NCBI GenBank assembly: GCA_963725425.1 | Contig: CAVRYJ010000044.1 | Span: 132,263-196,262 of the forward strand | DNA length: 64,000 bases | Origin: an uncultured Clostridiaceae bacterium | Lineage (GTDB): Bacteria > Bacillota > Clostridia > Clostridiales > Clostridiaceae | Direction: 5' to 3' | The notes under the pieces: generated by a model | What the model was told of the DNA's origin: nothing | What the model saw: only the letters and a program-made list of their open reading frames with translations | Databases searched by the model: none | Shown: positions 1,980-51,056 of the stretch, in pieces | Numbering within the stretch: position 1 is the stretch's first letter | How the letters are laid out: every line of letters starts with the position of its first letter | Program-made: the position numbers and the translations under genes

Positions 1980-2290
1980 ATTAATTAGTTAATCCATACT
2001 AGTATTTGAAGTTAGTATTATATACTAGTACTTAGTATTAATACTAAGTGTCGGTACTAAGGGTCAACTATAATAGTTAATACGGCATCTGAAAGACAAT
2101 GGAGAATGGAGAATGGACAACTATCCATTGACAATGAACAACTGCCAATGGATAGTTGTTCATTAAAGATAGTTTTCCTCACTATCCTAGTAAAATTAAA
2201 AACCTTAATTCTAGATTTTTTGTAGCTTTGCTACAAAAAATCAACCTTAACTGCCCATTGTGAATTTTCAATTTTCAATTGTCTATTGTC
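1980..2290 (+). repeat. ~300-bp dispersed repeat, copy 1 (TAGTAT-rich block plus heptamer-armed hairpin element)
   Basis: Collinear with 13745-14035 and 17570-17880: ATTAGTTAAT.CATACTAGTATT ... GGCAT.TG.AAGACAATGGA ... ATCAACC.TAACT. Confidence 0.85.
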
Positions 2291-2370
2291 CAAAACTTAC
2301 ATAAAATAATATATAATATGATATACTTATATTACTATCTTAACCCTAACACGCGCTTAAAGGAAAAAAT

Positions 2371-3264
2371 ATGAATACAGAAGCATTAGAATATTTTATC
2401 AAAGTTTATGAGAATAAAAGTGTTTCTTCGGCGGCCAAGGACTTATTTATTACTCCGCAAGGACTAAGCAAGGCTATAAAACAGCTGGAAATGGACTTAC
2501 AAGTAGAATTATTCTATAGAGGATCACGTGGAATGGAAGCTACGGAATATGGCGAGTTATTATATGCCCGAGCTAAACATATATGTTATCTCATGGAAGA
2601 CATAAAAAAAGAAATCAGCATTATGAACGGGGAAAAAAGCAGTTTAAGTGTTGTGGTTACTTATGCTACAACATCCTCATTGCCTCCGGATTTGTTGTTT
2701 GGATTTTCTGAAATTCATCCCAAGATCCAAATGAAACTAAGAGAATTCCCGGATGAATATCCTGTAGGTAAGTTGTTTGAAGAAGAAGTTGATGTTGGCT
2801 TAATTATGGGACATGAAGAAATTGAAAATTGTGAATATGATTTAATTTTACAAGGTGAAGTAGTGGTATTGGTTTCTAAAAAGCACCCCCTAGCGGTAAA
2901 GGATGAAATTTCCATAATAGAATTGGAAAACGAACCTTTGGTGTTAAAATCTGTGGAACCAGGTAAAGAACATAGTTTGGTGAATAAATGTCTCGAATAT
3001 GGATTTACTCCTCATGTTAAACATGAAGTTGGTAATATTATAACTGCACATAAACTATGTGAACTGAATGGACTAGTAACGGTTTCTGTAGATTTTGTTG
3101 AAGATGCACTTAAGGATGAAAGGTTAAAGATCATTAGGCTTAAGGAAAAAATTCCTCAGAATATTTATCTAATTACCAGGAAAAGATTTATTCAGTCTAA
3201 GGCAGTATCATTATTTCGAAGTTACATAAAACAATATATTGAAGAAAAAGAAAAGTCATTCTAA
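2371..3264 (+). CDS. LysR family transcriptional regulator
   Basis: LEYFIKVYENKSVSSAAKDLFITPQGLSKAIKQLE...LFYR N-terminal HTH; 297 aa. Confidence 0.93.
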   Translation: MNTEALEYFIKVYENKSVSSAAKDLFITPQGLSKAIKQLEMDLQVELFYRGSRGMEATEYGELLYARAKHICYLMEDIKKEISIMNGEKSSLSVVVTYATTSSLPPDLLFGFSEIHPKIQMKLREFPDEYPVGKLFEEEVDVGLIMGHEEIENCEYDLILQGEVVVLVSKKHPLAVKDEISIIELENEPLVLKSVEPGKEHSLVNKCLEYGFTPHVKHEVGNIITAHKLCELNGLVTVSVDFVEDALKDERLKIIRLKEKIPQNIYLITRKRFIQSKAVSLFRSYIKQYIEEKEKSF

Positions 3265-3292
3265 TGAGATAACCCTCATTAGAATGACTTTT
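3251..3292. terminator. Intrinsic terminator after lysR
   Basis: Perfect 18-bp stem AAAAGTCATTCTAATGAG/CTCATTAGAATGACTTTT followed by a T-run. Confidence 0.85.
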
Positions 3293-3298
3293 TTATAT

Positions 3299-3372
3299 GA
3301 TAAACTAAAAGTTTATCCCCTCTAACTTTTGGTTTATTGTTGTATATATGCCAACGTGTTAAATTTAATATT
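3299..3372 (+). promoter_or_regulatory. Candidate operator/promoter of the GH3 operon
   Basis: Palindrome ATAAACT-AAA-AGTTTAT followed by CCCCTCTAACTTTTTGGTTTATT and GTGTTAAATTTAATATTG; near-identical sequence upstream of the esterase gene (minus strand, ~13660-13732). Confidence 0.6.
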
Positions 3373-3474
3373 GTAAAGGAATACATTTGCAATATTATTA
3401 GGGGGATAAGCGCGGGATTAAGTTAGTGATAAGTAAAAAATCATTTAAAAATTACTTAAGGGGGATAAACAAAT

Positions 3475-6371
3475 ATGAAAGATAAAAAAATGAATAGGAA
3501 AAAGTCTCGTATTATAAAGTGCTCCGCATTGTCGGCTTTGCTTGTAATCGTTTTGGTGGGAAATATTGCATTGGCACACTTTTCAGCAATTATTACCTCA
3601 TATTTTTCAGCAATTAATGTAACTAGTAAACAGGCTCTTGCTGCTCGTAATCAGTCAAAATCACTTGATGAGCAGATTGAGAATGAGGGTATAGTTCTTC
3701 TTCAAAATAATGACAACACTCTGCCTATGAAAACATCCAATGCTAACAAGACTAAAGTAAATGTTTTTGGATGGAGCTTTACTAATCCAATCTATGGGGG
3801 TACTGGTTCTGGTTCAACAGATTCATCTACGGCAGTTACCCCAAAAGATGGCCTTGAAGCTTCGGGTTTTCAGGTAAATGAGAAATTGTATAACGATTAT
3901 GTATCACTAAATATGAAAAGACCAACTGTTGGAATGAATGGACAGGATTGGACCATTCCAGAACCTGATCCATCACAATTCTACACAGCTGACAAGATGA
4001 AACAAGCTAAGGATTATTCTGATACTGCAATTGTATTTATTGCCCGTTCAGGTGGTGAGGGTGCAGATCTCCCAACAAGCATGGACGGTAAGGATACATT
4101 TAATCCAAAGGGCACCCAAGGACCTACAGGTGTAAAATTTGGTAATAAGGATGACCTTAATGCAAGCAAGAATTATTTGGAACTTAGTAACAGAGAAAAA
4201 GGTATGATAGACGCTGTTACTAAGAATTTTAATAAAGTAATTCTTATTGTTAACAGTAGTAATCCATTCCAACTCAATTGGGTGAAAAATTACAGTCAGA
4301 TTAAAAGCGTCATAAATATCGGAGGACCAGGCCAAAATGGATTCAACTCCGTTGGAAAAGTTCTATCCGGTGCTGTTAATCCATCCGGGAGAACTGTAGA
4401 CCTCTATGCTACAGATCTTCTGGATGCACCTGCAGCTAAAAACTTCGGTAATTTTGATTACGTAATCAAAAATGCAGATGGTTCATATTCTCAAGCAACG
4501 GATTCAAAAAAGTCGGTTTAAATTATGTAGATTACTCAGAGGGCATTTATGTAGGATACCGTTATTATGAGACTGCTGCTGCAGAAGGCGCAATCAATTA
4601 TGGGCAAAAAGTACAATACCCCTTCGGTTATGGTTTGAGTTATACTAATTTCAAACAGGAAGTTGTTCCCAATAGTTTAACATGGAACGATAAAGATATT
4701 TCCGTTAAGGTAAAAGTAAAAAACACGGGAACAGTTGCTGGAAAAGATGTTGTTCAGCTTTATTACTCTGCACCTTACACTGGAAAGATAGAGAAGTCTT
4801 CAATAGTTCTTGGTGCTTTTGGGAAAACAGGTAATATAAAAGCAGGAGAATCTGAGACAGTTACACTTTCCCTTAAAGTAGAAGATATGGCATCTTACGA
4901 TTCTAATAAAATATACAGTGCCAAAGGTTCCTATGTTCTCGAACCAGGTCAATACAAACTTATGCTTATGAATAATTCTCATGAAAAAATAGCTGATGTA
5001 GCTTCAAAGAACCTTTCTCAGGTTGTCTATGATACTACAGCACGTTCTAGTGATAAGCAAACAGCTGTAAATCAGCTTGATAACAATGTTACCGGCAATG
5101 GAAGCATAGCTACATATCTTTCTAGAGCTAATGGTTTTGCAAATCTTAAGGACATTGACACTAACAAAACTTATACTATTAAGAATGCTGATGGTAGCAC
5201 AGCTACAGTAAAAGGCAAACTTGTAGATTCAAGCTTCGTTAACTATATCAACAGTAAAAGATACACTGTACCTGCTGACACCCATACATCTGCACCTACT
5301 ACAGGCGCAAAAAATGGAAAGAAGCTGAAAGATTACGCTGGGATTAAATACAATGATAAAAGATGGGACACTTTGCTTGACCAAATGTCTATAGACGATA
5401 TGGTTAATTTAGTAATACACGGAGGATATAGAACTGCTGAGATTCCGTCAGTGGGCAAGCCTGCTACTTTAGATTATGATGGACCTGCAGCTATAACTTC
5501 ATTTCTGTCTTCAACAGGAGTATCCGGTATAGCATTCCCTACGGAGGATTTAATAGCATCCACCTGGAATGTTAAACTTGGGGAAAAAATGGGACAGTAT
5601 GTGGCAGCTGAGGCTAAAGCCTATGGTGTTACGGGTTGGTATGCACCTGCCATGGACACTCATCGTACATCATTCGGTGGAAGAAACTTCGAGTATTATT
5701 CTGAAGATGGTTTCCTTGCTGGTGAGATGGGCTCTTCCGTTACTAAAGGATATCAAAGTCAAGGAGGATATGTTTATATAAAACAATTTGCATTAAACGA
5801 TCAGGAGACTAACCGTACTTTCGGAGTCCTCACATGGGCTAATGAACAGGATATTCGTGAGATTTACTTAAAGCCATTTGAAATATCTGTTAAAGAGGGC
5901 GGTGCTAAGGCAGTAATGTCTTCGTTTAATAGCATAGGTAATACTTGGACTGGAGCAAGTTCAGGTCTTCTTACACAAATTCTTCGTAATGAATGGGGTT
6001 TCAAAGGCATGGTAAATACTGATTTCTATATGAATGGAAATGGTATGTCTGCATACCCTTACATGAATTTTGAACTTGGTATAAGAAGCGGTAATGATAT
6101 TTATCTTACTGGTGTTGCACCACTAGGTATACCTTCCCCAAACACTAAGAGCAATGATACTTTGTGGGCCCTTAGAGAATCTAGCCACCATATTTTATAC
6201 AATGAGGCAAACAGCAGCAAGGCTATGAATGCTGAAATGAGTAGCGATACTCCAACTTGGGTTAAACTATCAGTTGCTGCTGATGTTGTTCTTGCTTTAG
6301 CTATAGCTGCAGGTTTCTTCTTTACCTTACGTAAAAAGAAAGGTGATCAAGACATAGATATAAAAATGTAA
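3475..6371 (+). CDS. Membrane-anchored GH3 beta-glucosidase with permuted domain order (frameshift in an A-run at ~4505)
   Basis: N-terminal hydrophobic anchor; GIVLLQN, RSGGEGADL, SGRTVD, then DYSEGIYVGYRYYET...YPFGYGLSYT; GGRNFEYYSEDG and KQFALNDQETNR in the C-terminal half; C-terminal TM. The two ORFs join if one A is added at ~4505. Confidence 0.88.
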
Positions 6372-29642: not shown

Positions 29643-32600
29643 ATGAAGAAGAAAAGTTTAAGTATACTTATTGCAGTAGCATTAGCATCAACAACAATAT
29701 TACCAGCAGCTAGTGTTTTCGCAGACACTACTACACCAGTAACAACTACTACAGCACCAGTAGCAGTAACATCAGCACCAGCATCAACATATGGTGTTGA
29801 ATACGAGGGACAAGTTCAAAATATCGGATGGCAGACACCAGTTACTGAAACTGGAGATGCAACAGATATTACTTCAGCTCCAATAGCAGGAACTGTAGGA
29901 AAAGGTTTAAGAGTTGAAGCAGTGAAAATAGCAGGAACTAATTTACCAACAGGAGCTAGTATTACATACCAAGCTCAAGTACAGAATAAAGGATGGATGA
30001 CACCAGTTACATCAACTGGATCAGATATCACAGTAGCAGGAATGGCTGGAACTCAAAACCAAGGTCTTAGAGTTGAAGCATTTAAAATGACTTTAAGTGG
30101 TTTACCAGGATATGCAGTAGAATATCAAACACAAGTACAAAACAAAGGCTGGATGGATGCAGTTACAACTGCAAACGGAACTGATGTAACAGCAGCAGCA
30201 ATGGCTGGAACTCAAAACCAAGGACTTAGAATGGAAGCTTTAAAAATAGAAATCGTAAAAACAACTGCTGAAAAAACTGCAGAAGTAACTGCAATCAATT
30301 CAGTACAAACAGCAGAAGCTTCAGGACTCGCAGCAGATATAACAACAGCTACAACAGCTATAGCACAAGTACAAGATACTGTTGAAAATGCAGCATTAAC
30401 TGCTAGAATAGCAGCTATAAATATTTCAGTTTCTTCAGTAAAAGCAGCAAGCGCTTCAAGTTTTGCAGTAGCACTTAGTAGTGCACCTGCACAACAATCA
30501 AAAATTACATTTACAGTAATGAATGGTACAACTCCTGTAACTGTAGCACCAACATGGAGTGCTGATGGAAAAACAGCTACATTAACAGCTGGATCAAATC
30601 TTCCAGAAAATACTTATACTGTTGATGTAAAAAACGGAACAACTGATCTTGGAACTACAAGTGTAACTGTAACAGAACAAAAATTGCTAGTATTACAATA
30701 ACTTCAACTACATTAGCAGTTCAGACTGTTAACAATGTTCAGACTGGATTTGCAAGTTATAAAGTATTAGATCAATATGGAAATGATATTACAACTTCAG
30801 CTCTTGCTAATGATATAACATTCCAAAGTGGAGTTGGTACAGTTTCAGGAAGTAATGGTGAAATTACAATAACACCAAGTACTAATATGAATCTTATTAC
30901 ATTCCCAACAATTAATATAACTGCATATGATTCAACAAGTGCAACTAGTACAAGTGCTTCTTTAACTACATCTACACAAGAAGGAACATTAAGTAATTTT
31001 GTACTTGGAACAGCATTAACAAATGCTAATGGTAAAGTATTAACTGCAGGAGACACTACAGATATATTCTACCTTCCATTCACAGCTACAGATATAAGTG
31101 GTAATCCTACATCAAATTACAATTTGATTGTCAATGGTGTAGTTACAAACACAAGTACTAGTGGTCTTAAAAATTGCATAACTTCAACAGATACTGATGT
31201 AACTGCTCAAATTGTAAAAGATCCAAACAATTCAAACAATGCAGTAATTCAAGTAACTGATAATGGAAATAATGTTCCTCAAGATATGCCACTAGTACTT
31301 AGTGCTATGACATATACAGCAAAGACTTCATCATTGAATGTTACTTTGAAGAGAGAAGCAGAATTATCTAAATTTACTTTACAGGCTCCTTCAACAGAAG
31401 TAGCTGAAAATGATGCCTCAGCTATAATTCCATTTACAGCTGCAGATCAAGATGGAAATGTAATAACAGCATATAGCAGTATAGTTGGAAAAGTTACTTT
31501 AAGTTCTAATGCAACACTTATAGATAATGCTGATGGAACTGCTTCAGTTCAACTTAACGGACCATTTACAAGTACAGGAAATCAAATGGTAACAGCAACT
31601 TGCACAGGAGCAAGTACTGATGGATATAGTTCAGTAAATATAAATGTTCAGAATAACGCAGTAGCTAATGCATTAACTTTAAGTTCAACAATACTTATAA
31701 ATTCAATGCAACCAGGTGCAACACAGGCTGTAGATTTTGGATATAACAAAGGTGGTTTAACCGTTGCAGATCAATATGATAGAACTATGAACATGACAGG
31801 CGCTCCTGGTACTTACGAAGTTGTACCAAGTACTAGTAATAGTAATGTTGTTAGTGTTTCTGGTATTGCAGCCGGTGGAACAGGTATTACGGTTACTGGT
31901 GGAATAACAGGATCAGCAACAGTTACTTTCAACTTGATTAATACTACTGCTCCAAATACAATAATTGATTCAAAGTCAGAAATAATATCAGTTGTAGATG
32001 GTACTAACATCACAGGATATACAATAGGAGCAGTAACAAGTCCTATATATGTTGGAACTATTACCGCAGCAGATGGAACGAGCGCTCAACAAACAGGCGA
32101 TGATTATTTTGCTAATCCAGTTGTTTACGGAACAACATCAAATGGAACAAAAATAGCATTAGGTACTACTACTAAATCTTCAGTTACAGGTGTATCAAGT
32201 AATACAATAGTAGCAGCAAACGTTGATAATACTACAAACTTTAAACTTGAAGGTGATGTAGATCCATCTGATATATACGTTGGAGCAACAACAACAACAA
32301 ATAATGCAACAACAGCAAGCACTAATCTAAACGTAACAATTAATGGTGCTGATGGTCACATACATCAATTGAGTACACCTATTACATCTTCAACAGCAAC
32401 ACCAGTAGCTTCTTCAGTTGGTGTTAATGTAGCTACACAAAATGCTGGTGTTTCATTAGATAGTACTGGAACTAATGTAACAGTTAACTTATCAACAGCT
32501 AATTTAGCTAATATTGGATTAACAGCTGGTAGTTATTTGACTAAATTCACACCATCAGGTGCTGCAACTAAACAAGTAATTTACTTAGCTCCTAATGATC

Positions 32601-33436
32601 AATATGGAGAATCAGATACTAATTTATCAAGTCTTACACAAACTTCAGTTTCACCAGCAGGACAATTTAGTGTAAGTTCAACTGGATTAATATCAGGAAC
32701 TCCTGTATCCGGACAGACTGTTACACTTACAGGTGCAGCTGGTGCATATAGTAAGACAATTAATATAACATTCACAGGAACTGCACCAGTAGTAACACCT
32801 ACTGCCGTAGTATTAGGATCAGGATCAGTAACAGGAGCAGTAGCAGGAGATACAAAAATCACAGGATTAACTGCTAATACAGCATATAATGTATCAGTAG
32901 GAGGAGCAACAGCAACTTCAAAGACAACTGATGCAACTGGAGCAATCACAGGATTAATTGATGGTGATACTTATACAGTTACAGCTATAGCAGCACCTAC
33001 TGCCGTAATATTAGGATCAGGATCAGTAACAGGAGCAGTAGCAGGAGATAAAACAATCACAGGATTAACTGCTAATACAGCATATAATGTATCATTAGGT
33101 GGAGCAACAGCAACATCAATGACCACAGATGCAACTGGAGCAATCACAGGATTAATTGATGGTGATACTTATACAGTTACAGCTATAGTAGCACCAGCAG
33201 CTGGCACATTAAATGGAACAGTTGGTGCTCAAGATATATTTGGTAACTATTATGCAACAATAACAGTACCAGATTCATCAAAAGTTACAGCTGTTACAGA
33301 TCAAGGAACAGCTTTAGTACTAGGAGATACTTATTCTGCACCAACAGCAACTACTATAAAAGTACCTGTTACATCAAATGCAGATGTAGTTACAGTTACT
33401 ATTGGTGGAGTTGTTAACACTGTAGTATTGAAATAA
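29643..33436 (+). CDS. Large S-layer-like surface protein with N-terminal ChW repeats (frameshift in an A-run at ~30680)
   Basis: Signal peptide, strong RBS; YEGQVQNIGWQ, YQAQVQNKGWM, YQTQVQNKGWM ChW-type repeats; Thr/Ala/Val-rich beta domains; two 198-bp repeats near 32798-33190. Confidence 0.8.
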
Positions 33437-33544: not shown

Positions 33545-35927
33545 ATGATATCAAAGAAGACTTTAGCAACTATTTCATTAGTTATTGCAATGTCAGCAAC
33601 TGTAGTTACACCAGTATTTGCAGCAGATAGTGATATTTATCTTTTACCAAATACTACAACACCTGCTTTTACTAAAGCAGCTACAACATCTCTAGTTAAT
33701 CAAAAAGCTATAGGATTGAACTCACAAAACTATGGTTATGAATATAAGGGTGAAATTTATAATTTTAATGATGTATCAACTCTTTTTAATACTGACTCAA
33801 GAAGTTTTACTCAAACTATGACAGATCTTCCAACTAAAGAAACTCCAGTAGGTCCAGTTACTCCAGCTACTGTTGTAGCTGTTAGTTCAGTAAGTGCTAT
33901 TAACGGTACGGTTACAGTAACATTAAGTGGTACACCTACAACAACACCAGTACTTAGTGATTTTACATTAACACAAGCAATAGGCTTAGGTAATGCTACA
34001 ACAGTAACACCTACAGCTATTAGTACTACTGGAAATGTTGTTACATTAACAGTACCAACAGTAGCAGGAACATCATCATCTCAAAGTATTGTTGATTCAG
34101 CAGCATACCAAAGTGGAACTGCAGTAAGTGCTACAGCTTACAATGTAGCAGCGGTTACTACAGTAGCATCAGAGCTTGCTAAGGTTACTAATGCATCAAT
34201 AGCAACAGTACCTTATGGAACAGATATTACAACAGCTGGAACTGCCCAAGCTACTGTAGAAGGATTAATTAAAATCTTCAGCTCTAGCAGATCTTGATGC
34301 AGGATATACAGTAACAATAGCACCAGGTTCAACTTATAGCCCAATAACAAATGCATGGACTGGTAAGCTAACAGTAACAGAAACTGCAACTGGTGCAACA
34401 GCTACAGATTCAACATACAGAGCTATCACAATAGTTACTGGAGTATCTACAGCAGGAGCAACATCAGAACTTGCTAATATTACAGCAGTAGCAGTACCAG
34501 CAACACCAGTGGTACCAGAAGTAACAACAGTACCTTATGGAACAGCAAACACTCAAACTGCTGTGGAATCAGCAATATTGGTATTAGCTAATTCAGAAGT
34601 TGATTCAGGATACACAGTAACAATAGCACCAGGTTCAACTTATAGCACTGCAACAAAAGTATGGAATGGAGAGTTCATAGTAACAAATAATACAACACCA
34701 GCAAATACAGCAACAGATGCAGCATACAGAACTGCAACAGTAGCTACTTCAGCATCTATAGCAGGAGCAACATCAGAGCTTGCTAAGGTTACTAATGCAT
34801 CAATAGCAACAGTACCTTATGGAACAGATATTACAACAGCTGGAACTGCCCAAGCTACTGTAGAAGGATTAATTAAATCTTCAGCTCTAGCAGATCTTGA
34901 TGCAGGATATACAGTAACAATAGCACCAGGTTCAACTTATAGTACTGCAACGAAGTTATGGACTGGTAAGTTAACAGTAACAGAAACTGCAACTGGTGCA
35001 ACAGTTACAGATTCAACATACAGAGCTATCACAATAGTTACTGGAGTATCTACAGCAGGAGCAACATCAGAACTTGCTAATATTACAGCAGTAGCAGTAC
35101 CAGCAACACCAGTGGTACCAGAAGTAACAACAGTACCTTATGGAACAGCAAACACTCAAACTGCTGTGGAATCAGCAATATTGGTATTAGCTAATTCAGA
35201 AGTTGATTCAGGATACACAGTAACAATAGCACCAGGTTCAACTTATAGCACTGCAACAAAAGTATGGAATGGAGAGTTCATAGTAACAAATAATACAACA
35301 CCAGCAAATACAGCAACAGATGCAGCATACAGAACTGCAACAGTAGCTACTTCAGTATCTACTGCAGGAGCAACATCAGAGCTTGCTAAGGTTACTAATG
35401 CATCAATAGCAACAGTACCTTATGGAACAAATATTACTACAGCTGGAACTGCCCAAGCTACTGTAGAAGGATTAATTAAATCTTCAGCTCTAGCAGACCT
35501 TGATGCAGGATATACAGTAACAATAGCACCAGGTTCAACTTATAGTACTGCAACGAAACTATGGACTGGTGAGCTAACAGTAACAGAAACTGCAACTGGT
35601 GCAACAGCTACAGATTCAACATATAGAACTATCACAATAGCTACTGGAGCAGATACAACAGGAGCAACATTAGCACTTGCTAATATTACTACTGCATCAG
35701 TACAAACATTACCTTCTGGAACAGCTAACACTCAAGCTGGAGTGGAATCAGCAATCCTTGTATTAGCTAATTCAGAAGTTGGTACAGGTTATACAGTAAC
35801 AATAGCACCAGGTTCATCTTATAATACTGTAACGAAAGCATGGAGTGGTAAGTTCATAGTAACTAATAATACAACTCCTTCAAATACTGTTACAGATGCA
35901 GCAAGAACTTTCATAGTAGCTCAATAA
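33545..35927 (+). CDS. Secreted constant-N-module protein with three 603-bp repeats; predicted 5' exon of the group II intron (extra A at ~34272)
   Basis: MISKKTLATISLV...VFAADSDIYLL...GLNSQNYGYEY module; repeat units start near 34167, 34771, 35374, and later units show the correct frame (AAA, not AAAA). Confidence 0.85.
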
Positions 35928-36685
35928 TAAAAGTGCGAAACGTTACTCAATAAATTCTGATTAGAATTTATTGAGTGGAGATTAAAGACTCATTTCATTT
36001 AGAGGAATGAGTCTTTTCTTTAACTCCTTTATAGAATTGACAGGTGAAAGCCCTGTCTAGGACAACAGCTAGTATGTCCTATGTCTAATCCTCCTGCACA
36101 CCACATAAATCTGCTTACTTTATGGATGTGAAGCCAGGTGAAGTCGTAATAGGTGTAAGGCCTGTGCGGGGCTCCTTAAAAGGTTGCTATGATCAATATA
36201 ATATAATCCATGTTTATGCGGTATAAAAGTAGTTCATGCTGTTAAAATAACCATACCTTGGGCTTGGCACGAAACAGTGGGAACTAGATGTCCTACTGAA
36301 TTAAGAATAATTAAGCTGTTAAACTTAATTTGTTTATATCGTTAGTGGAGATCTAAGGCAGTCAAAAATAGGGATAATAAAGGGGAACGTTTGATGCTGT
36401 GCATAAGGAGGATTAGCAGATCCAATGAAAGATGTACGGGCTCAGCGGGTTCATAGTAGCAATGATACTCAGCCGAAAGCTAGAGTTTGAAAAGACTCTG
36501 AAATACTCATATGGTAACATAGGGGAAGGATAAAACTGAGTTAGCCAAGGAACCCAGTCGGTGATAGTAATATTGGATTAAACCAATTTTGTTAAGTCGA
36601 TGGAACGCCGTATGCCATGAAAGTGGCACGTACGGTGTGGACCGATCGAAATCCAATCATTTAAATTGAGTGGATAGTGAGGGAT
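35925..36685 (+). ncRNA. ORF-less group II intron (bacterial class B / IIB-like ribozyme) with predicted 5' splice site 8 nt upstream of GUGCG
   Basis: GTGCG at 35933; D3-like AGCGGGTTCATAGTAG...GGAAGGATAAAACTG; short ORF-less D4; canonical 34-nt D5 ACGCCGTATGCCAT-GAAA-GTGGCACGTACGGTGT (36605-36638); loop TACCTTGGGCT (36254-36264) complementary to the predicted junction AGCTCAA|GGAA. Confidence 0.88.
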
Positions 36686-37618
36686 GGAACAGTAAAAGCA
36701 GAACAAGTAGCACCAACAGGATTAGGAAGTGTAGCACCAACCGCAGCACTAACAGATGGTATCATAACAGGTACAACAGTTGCTATGCAATATAAATTAT
36801 CATCCGCTACAAATTATACTGCTGTAACAGGAACATCAATCACAGGTTTAGTAGCAGGAACTTATGATGTAAGATATGCAGCTAAAACAGGCTATAATGC
36901 TGGAACTGATGCAACTGTAACAGTTGGAGCTTATGTATCACCAATAACTGTAACTAGTTCATTAGTTAAAACAACTCATGGAAGCGCAGCATCTCTTGGA
37001 GCAGACCAAGTTACTATATTACAGTTTAACGGTGATACAAACGTAGCTGCAGATGGAAGCATCACAGTTACATTTGCAGATGGAACTCAAACTGTTGCTA
37101 AAACAGTAGCAGTTAGCGCAGGCGATACTAATTCAATTGTTGCAGGTAAAATCATTGCTGCATTTGCAACTGGTTTAACTGGAGTAACAGCTACTCAAGA
37201 AAACAATATAGCTGAATTTACTGAAAATTCACCAGCAGCTAACAATAATAATATTATTATAACATTGGCGCCTGGTTCAGTTACTGGTATAGATGATGAA
37301 GGAGGATCACTCATCATGATACGAGGATCAGCAGCATCAACAGGAGCAGCAGAAGTTAATACTTTAACTGTTACCGCTGCAACTGTAAATGTAAATGGAA
37401 ACATCACAGTTACATTTGCAGATGGAACTCAAACTGTTGCTAAAACGGTAGCAGTTAGTGCAGGCGATAATGCTTCAACTGTTGCAACTAAAATCAATGA
37501 TGCATTTGCAACTGGTTTAACTGGAGTAACAGCTACAGCTGTAGGTAACACTGTAGTATTTACTGCAAATACCCCAGCTATTGATAAAAATGTTACAGTA
37601 CTGATCAGTGCACTTTAA
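36686..37618 (+). CDS. Start-less surface-protein segment; predicted 3' exon (DUF4073-like and other beta domains)
   Basis: No signal peptide and no convincing RBS/start; QVAPTGLGSVAPT...DGIITGTTVAMQYK...ITGLVAGTYDVRYAA; in frame with the upstream gene after the predicted splice. Confidence 0.7.
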   Translation, partial: GTVKAEQVAPTGLGSVAPTAALTDGIITGTTVAMQYKLSSATNYTAVTGTSITGLVAGTYDVRYAAKTGYNAGTDATVTVGAYVSPITVTSSLVKTTHGSAASLGADQVTILQFNGDTNVAADGSITVTFADGTQTVAKTVAVSAGDTNSIVAGKIIAAFATGLTGVTATQENNIAEFTENSPAANNNNIIITLAPGSVTGIDDEGGSLIMIRGSAASTGAAEVNTLTVTAATVNVNGNITVTFADGTQTVAKTVAVSAGDNASTVATKINDAFATGLTGVTATAVGNTVVFTANTPAIDKNVTVLISAL

Positions 37619-37679: not shown

Positions 37680-38418
37680 AGAATAAGAAGATAGAATCGT
37701 CTGACGTGACGGTTCTTTTCTTTATCTAAAAATAACCACTCTGCCATCCTATTGCAACATCAAGTTAGAAACTATCAATAACTATTACTAACTACATCAC
37801 AAATCATATTATGTATACTAATCTAATATTTTAAATAATATAAATCAATATCTATTTAGTATGATGATTTACATTGTTTAGAATACTAAATAATGTATAA
37901 AAGGAGTATATCTATATTCTTCTCATAATTGTGTTTTCATATACAGTATAGAGCCTTTAATAATTGTTTCGTCTTTAAAAGAACTAAATAAATAAAAACG
38001 TCATCATGTCTTTTGATATGGTGGCTTTTGTTTAAGTAGGTTATTATAACACATATTAAACTATAATTCGACTATTTGTTGATGGAAACATAGGAATATA
38101 ATGTTAATATTTCATAAACATTTAATGACATTAAATAAATATTAGAAATACATGGAAAGAATAATAGAATTATATGACAATAAAATTAGAACAATGTACC
38201 AATAAAAAGATTAATTCACTCACAAAGCCTAAAAAGCTCATTTCACTGCAAAACTTCAAAGAAATTTACTGCAAAAGAATTCTCATATTCATCAGTAAAT
38301 CCTCATTCTATTCATTTCAATAGTTTCTAATAATTCGACACTGCATATTCTTCACTGCATAATCTAAATAATGCAGTAAACCTGTATAAGTCTAAGATAG
38401 ATTAAAATCTGTCTTAGG
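37680..38418 (+). repeat. ~730-bp non-coding direct repeat, copy 1 (begins with a REP-like hairpin)
   Basis: Collinear, imperfect match to 50200-50913. Confidence 0.9.
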
Positions 38419-38454
38419 CTATTTTGGGTATCTGTAACTAAAAGATAATGAAAT

Positions 38455-47579: not shown

Positions 47580-47843
47580 TTGGTTATTCTAATGTATTTT
47601 TTTTACAATTGATTCTGCAATAGTAGCTTTAGTTACGTGGACTACTAGAACTACAGACATTTCAGTGTCATGAGCAACAAAAACATTCCATTACCTTTTT
47701 TCCAATCTATTTTGAACGTCTATCCTTTCCGTTACGTTAGTTCCATTATGTATTGAACAACAAATGGTAGAGCAACATCATGCGTAGAAGTATTGATTTC
47801 ACTAGGTTTGCTGGATATGAAGAAATAGGGATATTCTGGTTAG

Positions 47844-50156
47844 GGTTGTGCTATTAACGCTACTTCTGTAAAAGTAACATTTTCATCAGCAGTAACAACT
47901 GCTCCTACTGCAAGTGATTTTACAGTAGCAGAAAGCGGAAGCAATATTGCTGTAAGTAATGTAGCTGTTGCTAGTGATAATTTGAGTGCTACATTAACAT
48001 TAGCTACTCCATTAACAACAGGTTCTTTTACTGTTAATGGAACAAGTGCAGCTATTGATTTAAGTGCTCCAGTTGTTAAATCAGCAGTGTTTTCTGGAAT
48101 TGCAGCTGGAAGTACTATTACATTAACATATGACAAAACACTTAATTCAAGTATTGTTCCAGCAGCTGGTGATTTTAAAGTTGTTGACAATGGTACTGCA
48201 GTTTCATTATATGGATATGTTCAAGTTAATAGTAATACAGTAGTATTAACACTCTCTAGTGCTATTTCTAATGCTACTGACCCTATTACTGTAAGTTATA
48301 TTCCTGGAGCAAATGTACTACAAAGTAGTTTAGGTACAAATGCAGCTGAATTTGATTTGTTAAGTGCAACAGCAGAACCAGCTAGCGCTCTTGCTACAGT
48401 TAGTTCACCTAAGGCAGTAGCTGCCATTGGAGCAACTGCTACAATTAGTTGGACTAACCCAACAAGTGGTACGACTCCAGCATCATATAACCTAGAGGCT
48501 TCTGTTAATGGCGGAGCATATACAACAGTAGAATCAGGCATATTAAATTCTGCAACTACCGCTACTTATACTGGTTTAAGTGGACAGTCAGTAGCATTTA
48601 AAGTAGTTTCAGTTGGAACTGGAACACCCGCTCCAACTGTTGAATCAACAGCTACAACAGCTATTACATTAGATTCAGTTGCACCAGCTTTAACTTCAGC
48701 TGTTGTAAATGGCAATATTATTACTTTAACTTATAGCAAACCTGTACAGACAGCAACTACTGGTGCAAGTTTCATCAGTGAGTATGGATTAACTGGTACA
48801 GCTGCAACTATTAGTTCTGGTACTATTAGTGGAAATACAGTAACTCTTAAATTAAACCAAAGTGTTCTAAGCACAGATACCGTAAAAATACAGTATACAA
48901 ATGCAACAGCTGGTAACGCTGGCGAAGATATAAATGATGTAGTAGGAAATCAACTTGTGAATGATGCAACTGCAGGTGGTGTTACTAATGACACTATAGC
49001 AAATGCAGGAACTTTGTCTTTAGCAGGTTCAACTTCTACGTCAAGTGCTATTAGTGAAAAACTAACATTGGCTGACGCTACAGGAACTGGAGTTGATGTA
49101 AGTTCAGCAGCTATGGCTTCTATTCAAATGACAGCTCCAGATGGAACTGTTACTACGATAGCACCTACAGCTAACAACTATATTTTGTTTAATGCACAAA
49201 ATACAGCTGGTAATTACGTATTTAATATGACATCTCTTGCTGGGGTTAAATATCAAACGACACTTGCTTGGACAGCTCCAACGTCAGTAGTAGCAAATGC
49301 AACTGGAGTCGTAGATGCAACAAACGGTACAGAATTTGCTTTAGGAACACCAGCTCTTAGTTTAACAGCGAATACTTATGTTGTTGCACCTGATGGAACT
49401 GTATCAATAGCTACAGTCGATGCAAGCCATAATGTTGAATTGAATGGTACTTCTAATGGAACATATACAATTTATACAAGTACTGCAGGAAATGTTTGGT
49501 CTAAATCAACAGTTTCATATCCAAATAGCTTTACGCCTACTGTATCAAGTGCAACTGTAAATGGAACAACAATGGTTCTTAATTATAATGTTGCATTAAG
49601 TGGAACTCCAGCGGCTTCAGCATTCTCAGTTATGGATAACGGTACAAGTGATGCAGTAACCAATGTTGCAGTATCTGGAACTACTGTAACATTAACTTTA
49701 ACTAATGCGGTTCTTGCTAGTGACACAGGTACTGTTAGCTATACTGCACCGACTACTACTCCATTAGTAGGAGTTACAGGGAATGCTATTCAGGCTGCTT
49801 CATTCACAGGACAAAGTGTAACAGATAATACAACTGTTTCATCATTAGTAAGTGCAGCTGCTGCTACTGGAACAAGTAGTGTAGTGTTAACTTATTCTAG
49901 TGCTTTATCTGCAACTTCTGCAACTACACCTCCAGCAGCAACTAGTTATACTGTTACTGTTAATGGAGCTAATGATGCTGTAACAGGAGTAATTGTTAAT
50001 GCTGCTAATAAAACTGTAACATTAGCTTTATCTGCTAATGTTGCTGCAGGTCAGACAGTCGTTGTTAATTATAATAAGCCAACTACAAACTCTTTGACTG
50101 ATGCTATTGGTAATAACGTGGCAGGGTTCTCAAATCAGATTGTTGGAGTTCAATAG
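47844..50156 (+). CDS. Start-less surface-protein segment with SwmB-like repeats and an Fn3-like domain
   Basis: Open frame from 47844 (AINATSVKVTF...) without signal peptide or RBS; ITLTYDKTL...FKVVDNG...VVLTLSSAI repeats. Confidence 0.7.
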   Translation, partial: GCAINATSVKVTFSSAVTTAPTASDFTVAESGSNIAVSNVAVASDNLSATLTLATPLTTGSFTVNGTSAAIDLSAPVVKSAVFSGIAAGSTITLTYDKTLNSSIVPAAGDFKVVDNGTAVSLYGYVQVNSNTVVLTLSSAISNATDPITVSYIPGANVLQSSLGTNAAEFDLLSATAEPASALATVSSPKAVAAIGATATISWTNPTSGTTPASYNLEASVNGGAYTTVESGILNSATTATYTGLSGQSVAFKVVSVGTGTPAPTVESTATTAITLDSVAPALTSAVVNGNIITLTYSKPVQTATTGASFISEYGLTGTAATISSGTISGNTVTLKLNQSVLSTDTVKIQYTNATAGNAGEDINDVVGNQLVNDATAGGVTNDTIANAGTLSLAGSTSTSSAISEKLTLADATGTGVDVSSAAMASIQMTAPDGTVTTIAPTANNYILFNAQNTAGNYVFNMTSLAGVKYQTTLAWTAPTSVVANATGVVDATNGTEFALGTPALSLTANTYVVAPDGTVSIATVDASHNVELNGTSNGTYTIYTSTAGNVWSKSTVSYPNSFTPTVSSATVNGTTMVLNYNVALSGTPAASAFSVMDNGTSDAVTNVAVSGTTVTLTLTNAVLASDTGTVSYTAPTTTPLVGVTGNAIQAASFTGQSVTDNTTVSSLVSAAAATGTSSVVLTYSSALSATSATTPPAATSYTVTVNGANDAVTGVIVNAANKTVTLALSANVAAGQTVVVNYNKPTTNSLTDAIGNNVAGFSNQIVGVQ

Positions 50157-50199
50157 AAAACTCGCTTCACACACAATGAACTTCAATTGGCATGAACAA

Positions 50200-50913
50200 T
50201 AAATAAGAAGAGAGAATCGTCAGACGTGACGGTTCTTTTTCTTTATCTAAAAATAACCATCCTGTCACTATATTGAACATCAAGTTAGAGCCTATCACTA
50301 ACTACATCACAAATCATGTTGTGTATACTAATCTAATATTTTAAATAATATAAATCAATATCTATTTAATATGATGATTTACATTATTTAGAATACTAAA
50401 TTAATCATAAAGAGAATATATTCTATATTCTTTCCATAATTGTATTTTCATATACATCATAGAGCCTTTAATAATATTCTTCTATCAAAGAACTAAATAA
50501 ACAATAGAGTCATTTTGATATGGTGGCTTTTATTTAACTAGGTTCATTATAACACACATTAAACTATAATTCGACTATTTGTTGATGGTAACGTAGGAAT
50601 AAACTGTTAATATTTCATAAACATTTAATGATATTAAATATGTATTAGAAATACATGGAAATTAATATAGAATTGTATGACAATGGAAGAACAATGTACC
50701 AACAAAATAATTGATTCACTCACAAAGCCTAAAAAACTCATTTACCGAAAACTTCAAAGAAATTCACTGTAAAATAATTCTCATATTCATTAGTAAATCC
50801 TCATTCTATTCATTTCAATAGTTTCTAACAATTCTACAGTACGATTTTTCACTGCATAATCTAAATAATGCAGTGAACTTGTATAAGCCTAAGATGGGTT
50901 AAAATCTGTCTTA
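50200..50913 (+). repeat. ~730-bp non-coding direct repeat, copy 2
   Basis: Collinear with 37680-38418. Confidence 0.9.
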
Positions 50914-51056
50914 AACTATCGATAGTGCCAGTAGTGTTGATAAATAAGGCTATAAAAAGTGTAGAATAAAATGTAGTATTCTGATAAGATAAGGGTAAGG
51001 AATAGCGAATATAATAATAAATAAATGGCAAAGGTATATATGGGGGAAGTGAATAA

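Follow-up and report, generated by a model that had tools for sequence, protein, structure and literature searches.

A candidate C.te.I1-type group II intron predicted to splice out a stop codon and extend a surface protein in a Clostridiaceae genome

Introduction

In the genome of an uncultured Clostridiaceae bacterium, a surface-protein gene that ends in a stop codon is followed by a group II intron without an open reading frame (ORF), and the intron is followed by a long open frame with no signal peptide. Are these two genes separated by an RNA element, or one gene whose stop codon can be spliced out so that its product is extended? The locus lies within the 64-kb stretch of DNA that we analyzed, called the window here (G000:C44:132263-196262), on a 273-kb contig of a 5.77-Mb assembly (46 contigs, 31-32% GC). 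The first-pass annotation had proposed the single-gene answer, by analogy with the C.te.I1 intron of Clostridium tetani. Judging from sequence comparison, we put at roughly 0.8 the probability that positions 35925-36685 are a domesticated intron of the C.te.I1 type, built to splice at 35924|36686.

C.te.I1, from C. tetani E88, is an ORF-less class B intron in an array of surface-layer (S-layer) genes (McNeil, Simon & Zimmerly 2014, PMC3919590; McNeil & Zimmerly 2014, PMC4024640). It is spliced 8 nt upstream of its GUGCG motif through an altered pairing of exon-binding site 1 (EBS1) with intron-binding site 1 (IBS1), and the interval from the real to the canonical boundary contains a stop codon (PMC3919590, PMC4024640). 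It has also been named as the nearest counterpart in bacteria to the alternative splicing of eukaryotes. Its authors knew of no close relatives, just "remnants" near S-layer genes (PMC3919590, PMC4024640), and a 2015 review regarded it as the only example of its type (PMC4424553). Our full-text literature searches, limited in coverage, returned no later description of a C.te.I1-like family. The likeness of the window intron to C.te.I1 rests on the published description of C.te.I1 rather than on its sequence. In addition, we collected about 20 related introns, from other Firmicutes, one Acholeplasma and metagenomes, which we call the family.

Anatomy of the intron

The upstream gene ends TTC ATA GTA GCT CAA TAA TAA AA, followed by GTGCG at 35933. 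As first noted, the stop codon (TAA, 35925-35927) opens exactly 8 nt before this motif. The parts of the locus, in order, are:

33545..35924, plus strand: 5′ exon, a surface-protein gene with signal peptide MISKKTLATISLVIAMSATVVTPVFA and ~100-aa tandem repeats, ending ...FIVAQ at the predicted 5′ splice site (ORF lists, translations and repeat analysis)
35918..35924, plus strand: IBS1 (AGCUCAA), the final 7 nt of the 5′ exon; pairs with 36258-36264 and covaries with EBS1 in 14 introns
35925..36685, plus strand: predicted excised intron as a whole, 761 nt, an ORF-less group IIB ribozyme of class B type (Rfam matches; family consensus fold)
35925..35932, plus strand: 8-nt spacer UAAUAAAA, predicted first nucleotides of the excised intron, with the short-isoform stop TAA at -8
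35933..35937, plus strand: GUGCG boundary motif, predicted not to be the splice site here; aligned across all family members
35944..36033, plus strand: a pair of stem-loop insertions in stem I(i,ii), characteristic of class B (PMC4024640); aligned in all members
36240..36266, plus strand: enlarged EBS1 loop, 27 nt, closed by 36233-36239 and 36267-36273 (UUCAUGC/GCACGAA) in the family alignment and consensus fold
36254..36257, plus strand: delta region (UACC), directly 5′ of EBS1; C36257 pairs with G36686 and C36256 with G36687 of the 3′ exon
36258..36264, plus strand: EBS1 (UUGGGCU), 7/7 pairs with IBS1, one of them G-U; supported by covariation
36605..36638, plus strand: domain 5 (D5), with the class B CGC triad (A-CGC-CGUAU); 100% of the alignment cells of its helices are paired, and 2 pairs show compensatory changes
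36642..36685, plus strand: domain 6 (D6), ending GGGAU and lacking both a bulged A and a GNRA loop; the C. simiarum and Hathewaya copies share this D6 base
36686..37618, plus strand: 3′ exon, 310 codons plus stop, no signal peptide; the GTG at 36677 ("MRD...") lies inside D6
37693..37716, plus strand: terminator-like hairpin after the 3′ exon, the likely end of the transcription unit

Covariance models matched two parts of the ribozyme. The Rfam model of D5/D6 (RF00029) scored 46 bits on 36603-36690, above its gathering score of 40, in agreement with the D5 first placed at 36605-36638, and the domain 1 model (RF02004) matched 36019-36180 with 33.6 bits, slightly below its cut-off of 34.5. There is no ORF of ≥60 aa within 35933-36685, and domain 4 (D4) is a short hairpin, as expected from the earlier statement that D4 carries no reverse-transcriptase gene.

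The element that places the predicted 5′ splice site is the sequence TACCTTGGGCT at 36254-36264, which pairs at 10 of 11 positions with the joined exon ends AGCTCAA|GGAA. This pairing is as the first-pass annotation described it; the 11-nt loop closed by CCA/UGG that was drawn around it proved to be a local reading, and the consensus fold gives the 27-nt loop listed above. A candidate EBS2 (CUAUGA, 36192-36197, against exon UCAUAG) was rejected as evidence, since conservation and pairing of this segment in the family fold do not depend on the exon.

Joining A35924 to G36686 would give CAA|GGA, with both frames kept and phase 0 open for 310 codons. The predicted RNA junction is GCUCAA|GGAACA (...GUAGCUCAA joined to GGAACAGUAAAAGC), and the predicted product reads FIVAQ|GTVKAEQVAPTGL (FIVAQ|GTVKAEQ). 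Rfam's generic alignment stops at 36690 (AAC), an intron end that would put the junction out of frame; the family alignment and R1, a covariance model that we built from family D5/D6 copies, stop at 36685 (GGGAU), consistent with the in-frame junction after an AT end that had been proposed. Counted from the GTG, the downstream ORF (36677-37618) has 313 aa.

Both parts of the predicted product are cell-surface modules. The N-terminal ~80-aa domain of the 3′ exon is 55-63% identical to repeats of S-layer-homology proteins, and two intron-free homologues of the 5′ exon (P0005 and P0008) stop at the same domain boundary and are then followed by plain terminators and no intron. As these proteins are low-complexity and modular, a protein search across the predicted junction returned no intron-less homologue confirming its exact position.

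Relatives of the intron

We searched for the family with the pattern GTACGGTGTRGACCNNNCGAAATCC, which covers D5/D6 only and was prompted by the distinctive D6 start of L012. This partial homologue, from another family, has 77% column identity across D2-D5 and shows compensatory changes in its D5. Since both the pattern and R1 are restricted to D5/D6, members were not selected on their 5′ features. The pattern matched 13 loci in one-genome-per-species contigs and 16 metagenome stretches. For the 13 loci, the named hosts are Acholeplasma laidlawii, Tissierella simiarum, [Clostridium] ultunense, Sporosarcina obsidiansis and Clostridium simiarum; metagenome-assembled genomes (MAGs) of Thermoanaerobacterales, Tissierellia, Anaerovoracaceae, Epulonipiscium and Clostridia also contained matches. 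Of 397 Clostridiaceae genomes searched with R1, about 9 yielded further members, including Hathewaya limosa, H. massiliensis and C. niameyense. A DNA search of 40 relatives recovered L012 only, as a partial homologue, plus generic D5 matches, and the 7 same-genus genomes searched contained no close relative of the window intron.

Matches in three further genomes (G013, G020 and G010) were rejected as ordinary introns, one of them within dnaE and carrying a LAGLIDADG gene. This dnaE gene, in a Clostridiaceae genome other than that of the window (L021, G020:C1:510000-521000; L022), is interrupted by a class B group II intron with the LAGLIDADG gene in its D4, and a group I intron lies ~230 nt after it.

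In every full intron of the family, the 8 nt before GUGCG are UAAUAAAA, UAACAAAA or UAAAAAAA (UAA[U/C/A]AAAA), or else NAAUAAAA, in which the stop occupies -5 to -3, the same layout as in published C.te.I1. Every full intron is also preceded by a long ORF in frame exactly to -8 (up to 1497 codons, or to the edge of the locus), with a signal peptide wherever the start is present. At the other end, the D5/D6 copies terminate in GGAAU or GGGAU, and the next base opens a phase-0 ORF of 92 to >1700 codons wherever it can be read; the other phases close within 0-45 codons. The sole exception is L077, a short metagenome contig with two D5/D6 copies; downstream of the first of these, the frame closes after 15 codons. 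In L012, the coding sequence begins at the junction, ahead of any start codon. This family-wide phase rule, together with the position of the window's GTG inside D6 and the 310 open codons, agrees with the first-pass proposal that splicing would fuse the surface protein to an ORF without a start of its own.

We then asked whether the guide pairings are maintained as the exons change. For 14 introns we aligned the 7 nt before -8, the spacer, GUGCG, the 4 + 7 nt of the EBS1 loop, the intron end and the first 4 nt of the exon. The IBS1/EBS1 and delta/3′-exon positions form standard pairs in 92.2% of cells, compared with 16-49% when the columns are slid by 1-3 positions. Nine of the 11 guide pairs have changes on both sides, and the observed covariation was reached in 0 of 500 shuffles. 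The IBS1/EBS1 combinations include AGCUCAA/UUGGGCU (window), AGCUGAA/UUCAGCU, AGCUAAC/GUUAGCU, AACUCCA/UGGAGUU and AGCUAAA/UUUAGCU; two near-identical metagenome introns (L084 and L085) differ by a compensatory IBS1/EBS1 change. With seven of seven pairs at -8, this covariation, and the stop-bearing spacer throughout the family, the sequences argue for the proposed 5′ splice site 8 nt upstream of GUGCG and for removal of the stop codon with the intron.

The column of delta opposite exon position +1 is paired in 14 of 14 introns (CG in 8, UA in 5, UG in 1), and the pairing is often longer, as in GCU:AGC or UGUC:GACA; several members have UGCU directly before EBS1 and exons that start AGCA or AGCG. 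Together with C36257:G36686 and C36256:G36687 in the window, these pairs favor the IIA-like recognition of the 3′ exon that had been suggested.

For 10 full introns, RNAalifold gave a consensus of 196 pairs, and compensatory changes are seen at 96 of these. The window intron, which is 64-76% identical to its relatives, forms 182 of the 196 (92.9%), and the other introns form 89-99%; thus, the fold has been kept through long divergence. Covariation is also present among the D5/D6 copies of the family. Most GGAAU-type members keep a bulged A in D6. A GGGAU subgroup without it comprises the window intron and those of C. simiarum, Hathewaya, C. niameyense and Tissierella, in line with the earlier caution that the lower stem and branch site of the window's D6 are not canonical.

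Two further features of family members deserve mention. In A. laidlawii (L023) and S. obsidiansis (L034), UUGCG replaces GUGCG after the stop-bearing spacer; these variants fit a boundary motif that is no longer the cleavage site and whose G is no longer the 5′ terminal base. In some introns, domain 1 contains, between AAGGCAAUCAAAAA and AGGGAUAGG, a "four-helix-bundle" ORF of the type found in 23S rRNA intervening sequences (L024, oriented ~2900-3400; L012, 2-232; L031).

Arrangement of exons

The window locus has a single 3′ exon and a single D5/D6 and forms no array; neither the Rfam models nor R1 found a second D5/D6 in the window. Arrays of D5/D6-exon cassettes, which characterize the C. 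tetani locus and not the type of ribozyme, occur in the C. simiarum and C. niameyense relatives. In C. simiarum (Scaffold4, 93037-97493; L035 and L066), one full intron is followed by three cassettes with phase-0 ORFs of 185, 315 and 92 codons, whose exons start AGCG, AGCA and AGCA. From its sequence, this array is a putative C. tetani-type alternative 3′ splice-site layout in another species. A third arrangement is present in a Thermoanaerobacterales MAG (DAIORT010000005.1, oriented 2117-5634; L024), where two family introns lie in series: an exon, an intron, a 323-codon exon ending in a UAACAAAA spacer, an intron and a 247-codon exon. Such a serial layout, which has not been described before, would form a chain of optional extensions.

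Proposed mechanism

From the anatomy and the published C.te.I1 experiments we derived a mechanism, and it is from these that we infer splicing in this strain, its hydrolytic pathway, the ratio of isoforms and the function of the extension. The transcript would contain 5′ exon, intron and 3′ exon and end at the hairpin at 37693-37716. On unspliced mRNA, translation would run to the UAA at 35925 and yield the short surface protein. On the spliced route, EBS1, presented in the 27-nt loop, would pair with 35918-35924. As this pairing involves the final 7 bases of the exon, the 5′ cut would follow A35924, which places it 8 nt ahead of GUGCG, and the intron would take the stop codon with it. The first step would probably be hydrolytic, as in C.te.I1, since D6 has no bulged A. 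C36257 and C36256 would then pair with G36686 and G36687, in IIA-like 3′-exon recognition, and the exons would be joined as CAA|GGA. The spliced mRNA would be read for 310 further codons (FIVAQ|GTVKAEQ...), and the C-terminal module would be exported on the signal peptide of the first exon. If the element is a C.te.I1-type intron, the odds lean modestly towards its expression as two isoforms in this strain.

The second of the class B insertion hairpins (~35985-36017) is stable (-15 kcal/mol, z = -3.9), and UUUUCUUU comes next. A GC-rich hairpin with a run of U is found in several relatives at the same place as 35985-36030 in the window. This hairpin, itself part of the ribozyme fold, could terminate some transcripts and thereby set the ratio of short to long isoform.

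Alternative explanations

The most serious alternative is that the intron is a recently inactivated relic: a family member by descent whose 5′ exon gene has become a pseudogene, so that no isoforms are made in this strain. Several observations weigh on this side, the first of which concerns the following feature:

34268..34271, plus strand: A4 run with a +1 frameshift as assembled; AAA in two other copies of the same repeat, and the first repeat spacing is 604 as against 603

This frameshift breaks the 5′ exon gene in the assembly: the ORF that starts at 33545 closes at 34297, after 250 aa, and the reading frame resumes one base over. The first-pass annotation had read 33545-35927 as one gene yielding isoforms of ~793 and ~1103 aa. 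It is not one ORF, and these sizes hold conditionally, as they need the frameshift to be an assembly error or to be bypassed in some other way. The neighboring surface gene is frameshifted too. A mobile intron present in five copies of 2.7 kb each in the same assembly has no indels, and general homopolymer noise is therefore not evident. The lower stem of D6 pairs poorly in the window, which accounts with L027 and L035 for the unpaired lower-stem cells of the alignment. An integrase island lies directly downstream. The locus may thus be decaying rather than mis-sequenced.

Against this, everything past the frameshift is intact: in a genome of 32% GC, the frame stays open for 552 codons up to the predicted splice site and for 310 across the 3′ exon. 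Likewise, the ribozyme retains its consensus pairs at 92.9% and its full EBS1/IBS1 pairing. The frameshift itself lies in a 603-bp tandem repeat whose copies are 96-98% identical, where assemblies often err. We regard a relic as unlikely.

A second possibility is that a selfish ORF-less intron, mobilized by the reverse transcriptases of other introns, homes behind the stops of surface genes, and that the fusion is not its function. Introns that encode their own proteins are indeed present in the genome, in at least 8 copies. At least 7 of the reverse transcriptase-bearing introns are near-identical, with AGC-type D5s (64.9-66.2 bits) on contigs C6, C11, C31, C40 and C42, which suggests a recently active mobile intron. 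The similar IBS1 sequences of several family members (AGCUAAC, GCUCAA) are also as expected from homing. But homing leaves unexplained why the 3′ ORFs are in phase 0 without start or signal peptide and why the stop is always in frame, and the subgroup to which the window intron belongs has no bulged A, which is needed for lariat formation and reverse splicing. Moreover, the mobile introns of the genome, with their AGC-type D5, are of another class, and blastn found no paralogue of the window intron in its own genome. Other weak D5/D6 matches in the genome were rejected as paralogues, being ordinary reverse transcriptase-bearing introns or orphan fragments. We consider homing of a selfish intron very improbable. 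As the resident introns are of another class, a cognate maturase is not evident, which would point to self-splicing or host factors.

Least tenable is the view that there are two independent genes, in which the RNA would be an untranslated spacer or be spliced at the canonical GUGCG, and the GTG would serve as the start codon of 36677-37618: this codon has a weak purine-rich stretch upstream and gene callers annotate "MRD..." ORFs in relatives, but the GTG and the bases before it form the D6 3′ strand conserved in several genomes (GGAUAGUGAGGGAU), the product would have cell-surface domains yet no signal peptide, and the 7 nt adjoining GUGCG, judging from the slid registers, are not complementary to the EBS1 loop. 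The reading that we retain is that of a domesticated, stop-removing intron.

Genomic context

Surface-protein genes also lie upstream of the locus: one for a ChW-repeat protein at 29643 and one for a large repeat protein that ends at 33436. The ChW-repeat gene (29643-30701) and the 929-codon open frame at 30647-33436 look like a single gene whose two parts are separated by a frameshift, at the A5 run of GAACAAAAATTGC (region 30640-30720); the second part has no signal peptide. Downstream, the integrase island begins at ~38.7 kb. Two direct repeats of ~730 bp (37680-38420 and 50190-50920, 89-93% identical) and a 5′-truncated surface-protein ORF (47841-50156) bracket the integrase/primase island. 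This start-less ORF was rejected as a second 3′ exon, as no D5/D6 lies nearby, and we read it as a 5′-truncated gene beside the integrase island.

The contig carries Rep_3 genes, and its Rep genes are similar to a plasmid gene of Clostridium estertheticum. No tRNA genes were found on its 273 kb, and the best-scoring named relatives in protein searches were Clostridium sp. DSM 17811 and C. frigoriphilum. A secondary, plasmid-like replicon of a psychrophilic Clostridium is therefore plausible, though unproven.

Discussion

Stop-carrying members of the family occur in Clostridium, Hathewaya, Tissierella, Thermoanaerobacterales, Anaerovoracaceae, Sporosarcina, Acholeplasma and metagenomes. On balance, though less firmly than for the window intron itself, we favor the view that C.te.I1 is not a one-off and that it belongs to a broad, undescribed family of stop-carrying domesticated introns. 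These would serve generally to extend surface proteins at the C terminus on an optional basis, in three layouts: a single 3′ exon, alternative 3′ cassettes, and serial chains in which each exon ends in a removable stop.

If this is correct, alternative splicing in bacteria would be a strategy that recurs among Firmicutes. A second independent locus, and about 20 relatives with the same spacer, covarying guides and a strict frame rule, indicate that the arrangement is selected and repeatable. The relatives supply natural compensatory "mutants" for the predicted shifted splice site and add new layouts, among them serial chains and the UUGCG boundary variants. For annotation, the start-less "MRD..." hypothetical proteins found after surface-protein genes are best taken as 3′ exons.

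Comparison with known systems

The window intron resembles C.te.I1 in most respects. Both are ORF-less class B (IIB) ribozymes in surface-protein gene clusters. In both, the 5′ site (predicted for the window) lies at -8, set by EBS1-IBS1, with a stop codon within the 8-nt spacer, which is essential in C.te.I1 (PMC3919590, PMC4024640). The EBS1 loop is enlarged in each, to 27 nt in the window and 24 nt in C.te.I1, compared with 8-11 nt in ordinary class B introns; C.te.I1 has no EBS2 (PMC4024640). An IIA-like pairing joins the nucleotides just before EBS1 to the first bases of the 3′ exon; in C.te.I1 this delta-IBS3 pairing is extendable to 4 bp, with 3′ exons that start AGCA (PMC3919590, PMC4024640). 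Finally, D6 has no clear bulged A or GNRA loop in either intron, and the annotated start of the 3′ exon ORF lies inside D5/D6. C.te.I1 self-splices by hydrolysis (PMC3919590, PMC4024640), whereas splicing of the window intron is a prediction.

The two introns also differ. The window has one 3′ exon, while C.te.I1 has four D5/D6-exon cassettes; its stop starts at -8, while that of C.te.I1 ends 2 nt before GUGCG; its exon GGAA is paired to CC, while the AGCA exons of C.te.I1 are paired to UGCU; and its D4 is tiny, while that of C.te.I1 has a 311-nt loop. The host of the window intron has intron-encoded proteins of another class, and C. tetani E88 has none.

With the mobile class B group II introns of Firmicutes, the window intron shares a D5 with the CGC triad, the double stem insertion I(i,ii), the D1-D6 fold and matches to RF02004 and RF00029. 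Unlike them, it has no reverse-transcriptase ORF, an IBS1 that does not adjoin GUGYG, a 27-nt rather than 8-11-nt EBS1 loop, a degenerate branch site and a single genomic copy.

More distant parallels exist. As summarized in PMC4024640 and PMC4424553, the fungal mitochondrial IIB1 rRNA introns of Li et al. 2011 splice upstream of GUGYG through an altered IBS1-EBS1 pairing; like the window intron they are described there as having neither a branch-site motif nor a reverse-transcriptase ORF, and they splice by hydrolysis. In the same accounts, these introns differ from that of the window in being organellar and in lying in rRNA rather than between coding exons, with shifts of 1-33 nt and no stop removed. 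In B.a.I2 of Bacillus anthracis, according to the summary in PMC4424553, the choice of splice site by a bacterial group II intron likewise decides an ORF fusion; as described there, B.a.I2 encodes its own protein, uses the canonical 5′ site and chooses between two 3′ sites 4 nt apart, unlike the window intron. Set beside these systems, the window intron, a member of a family whose breadth seems to be undescribed, appears from its sequence features to be a further locus of the C.te.I1 kind.

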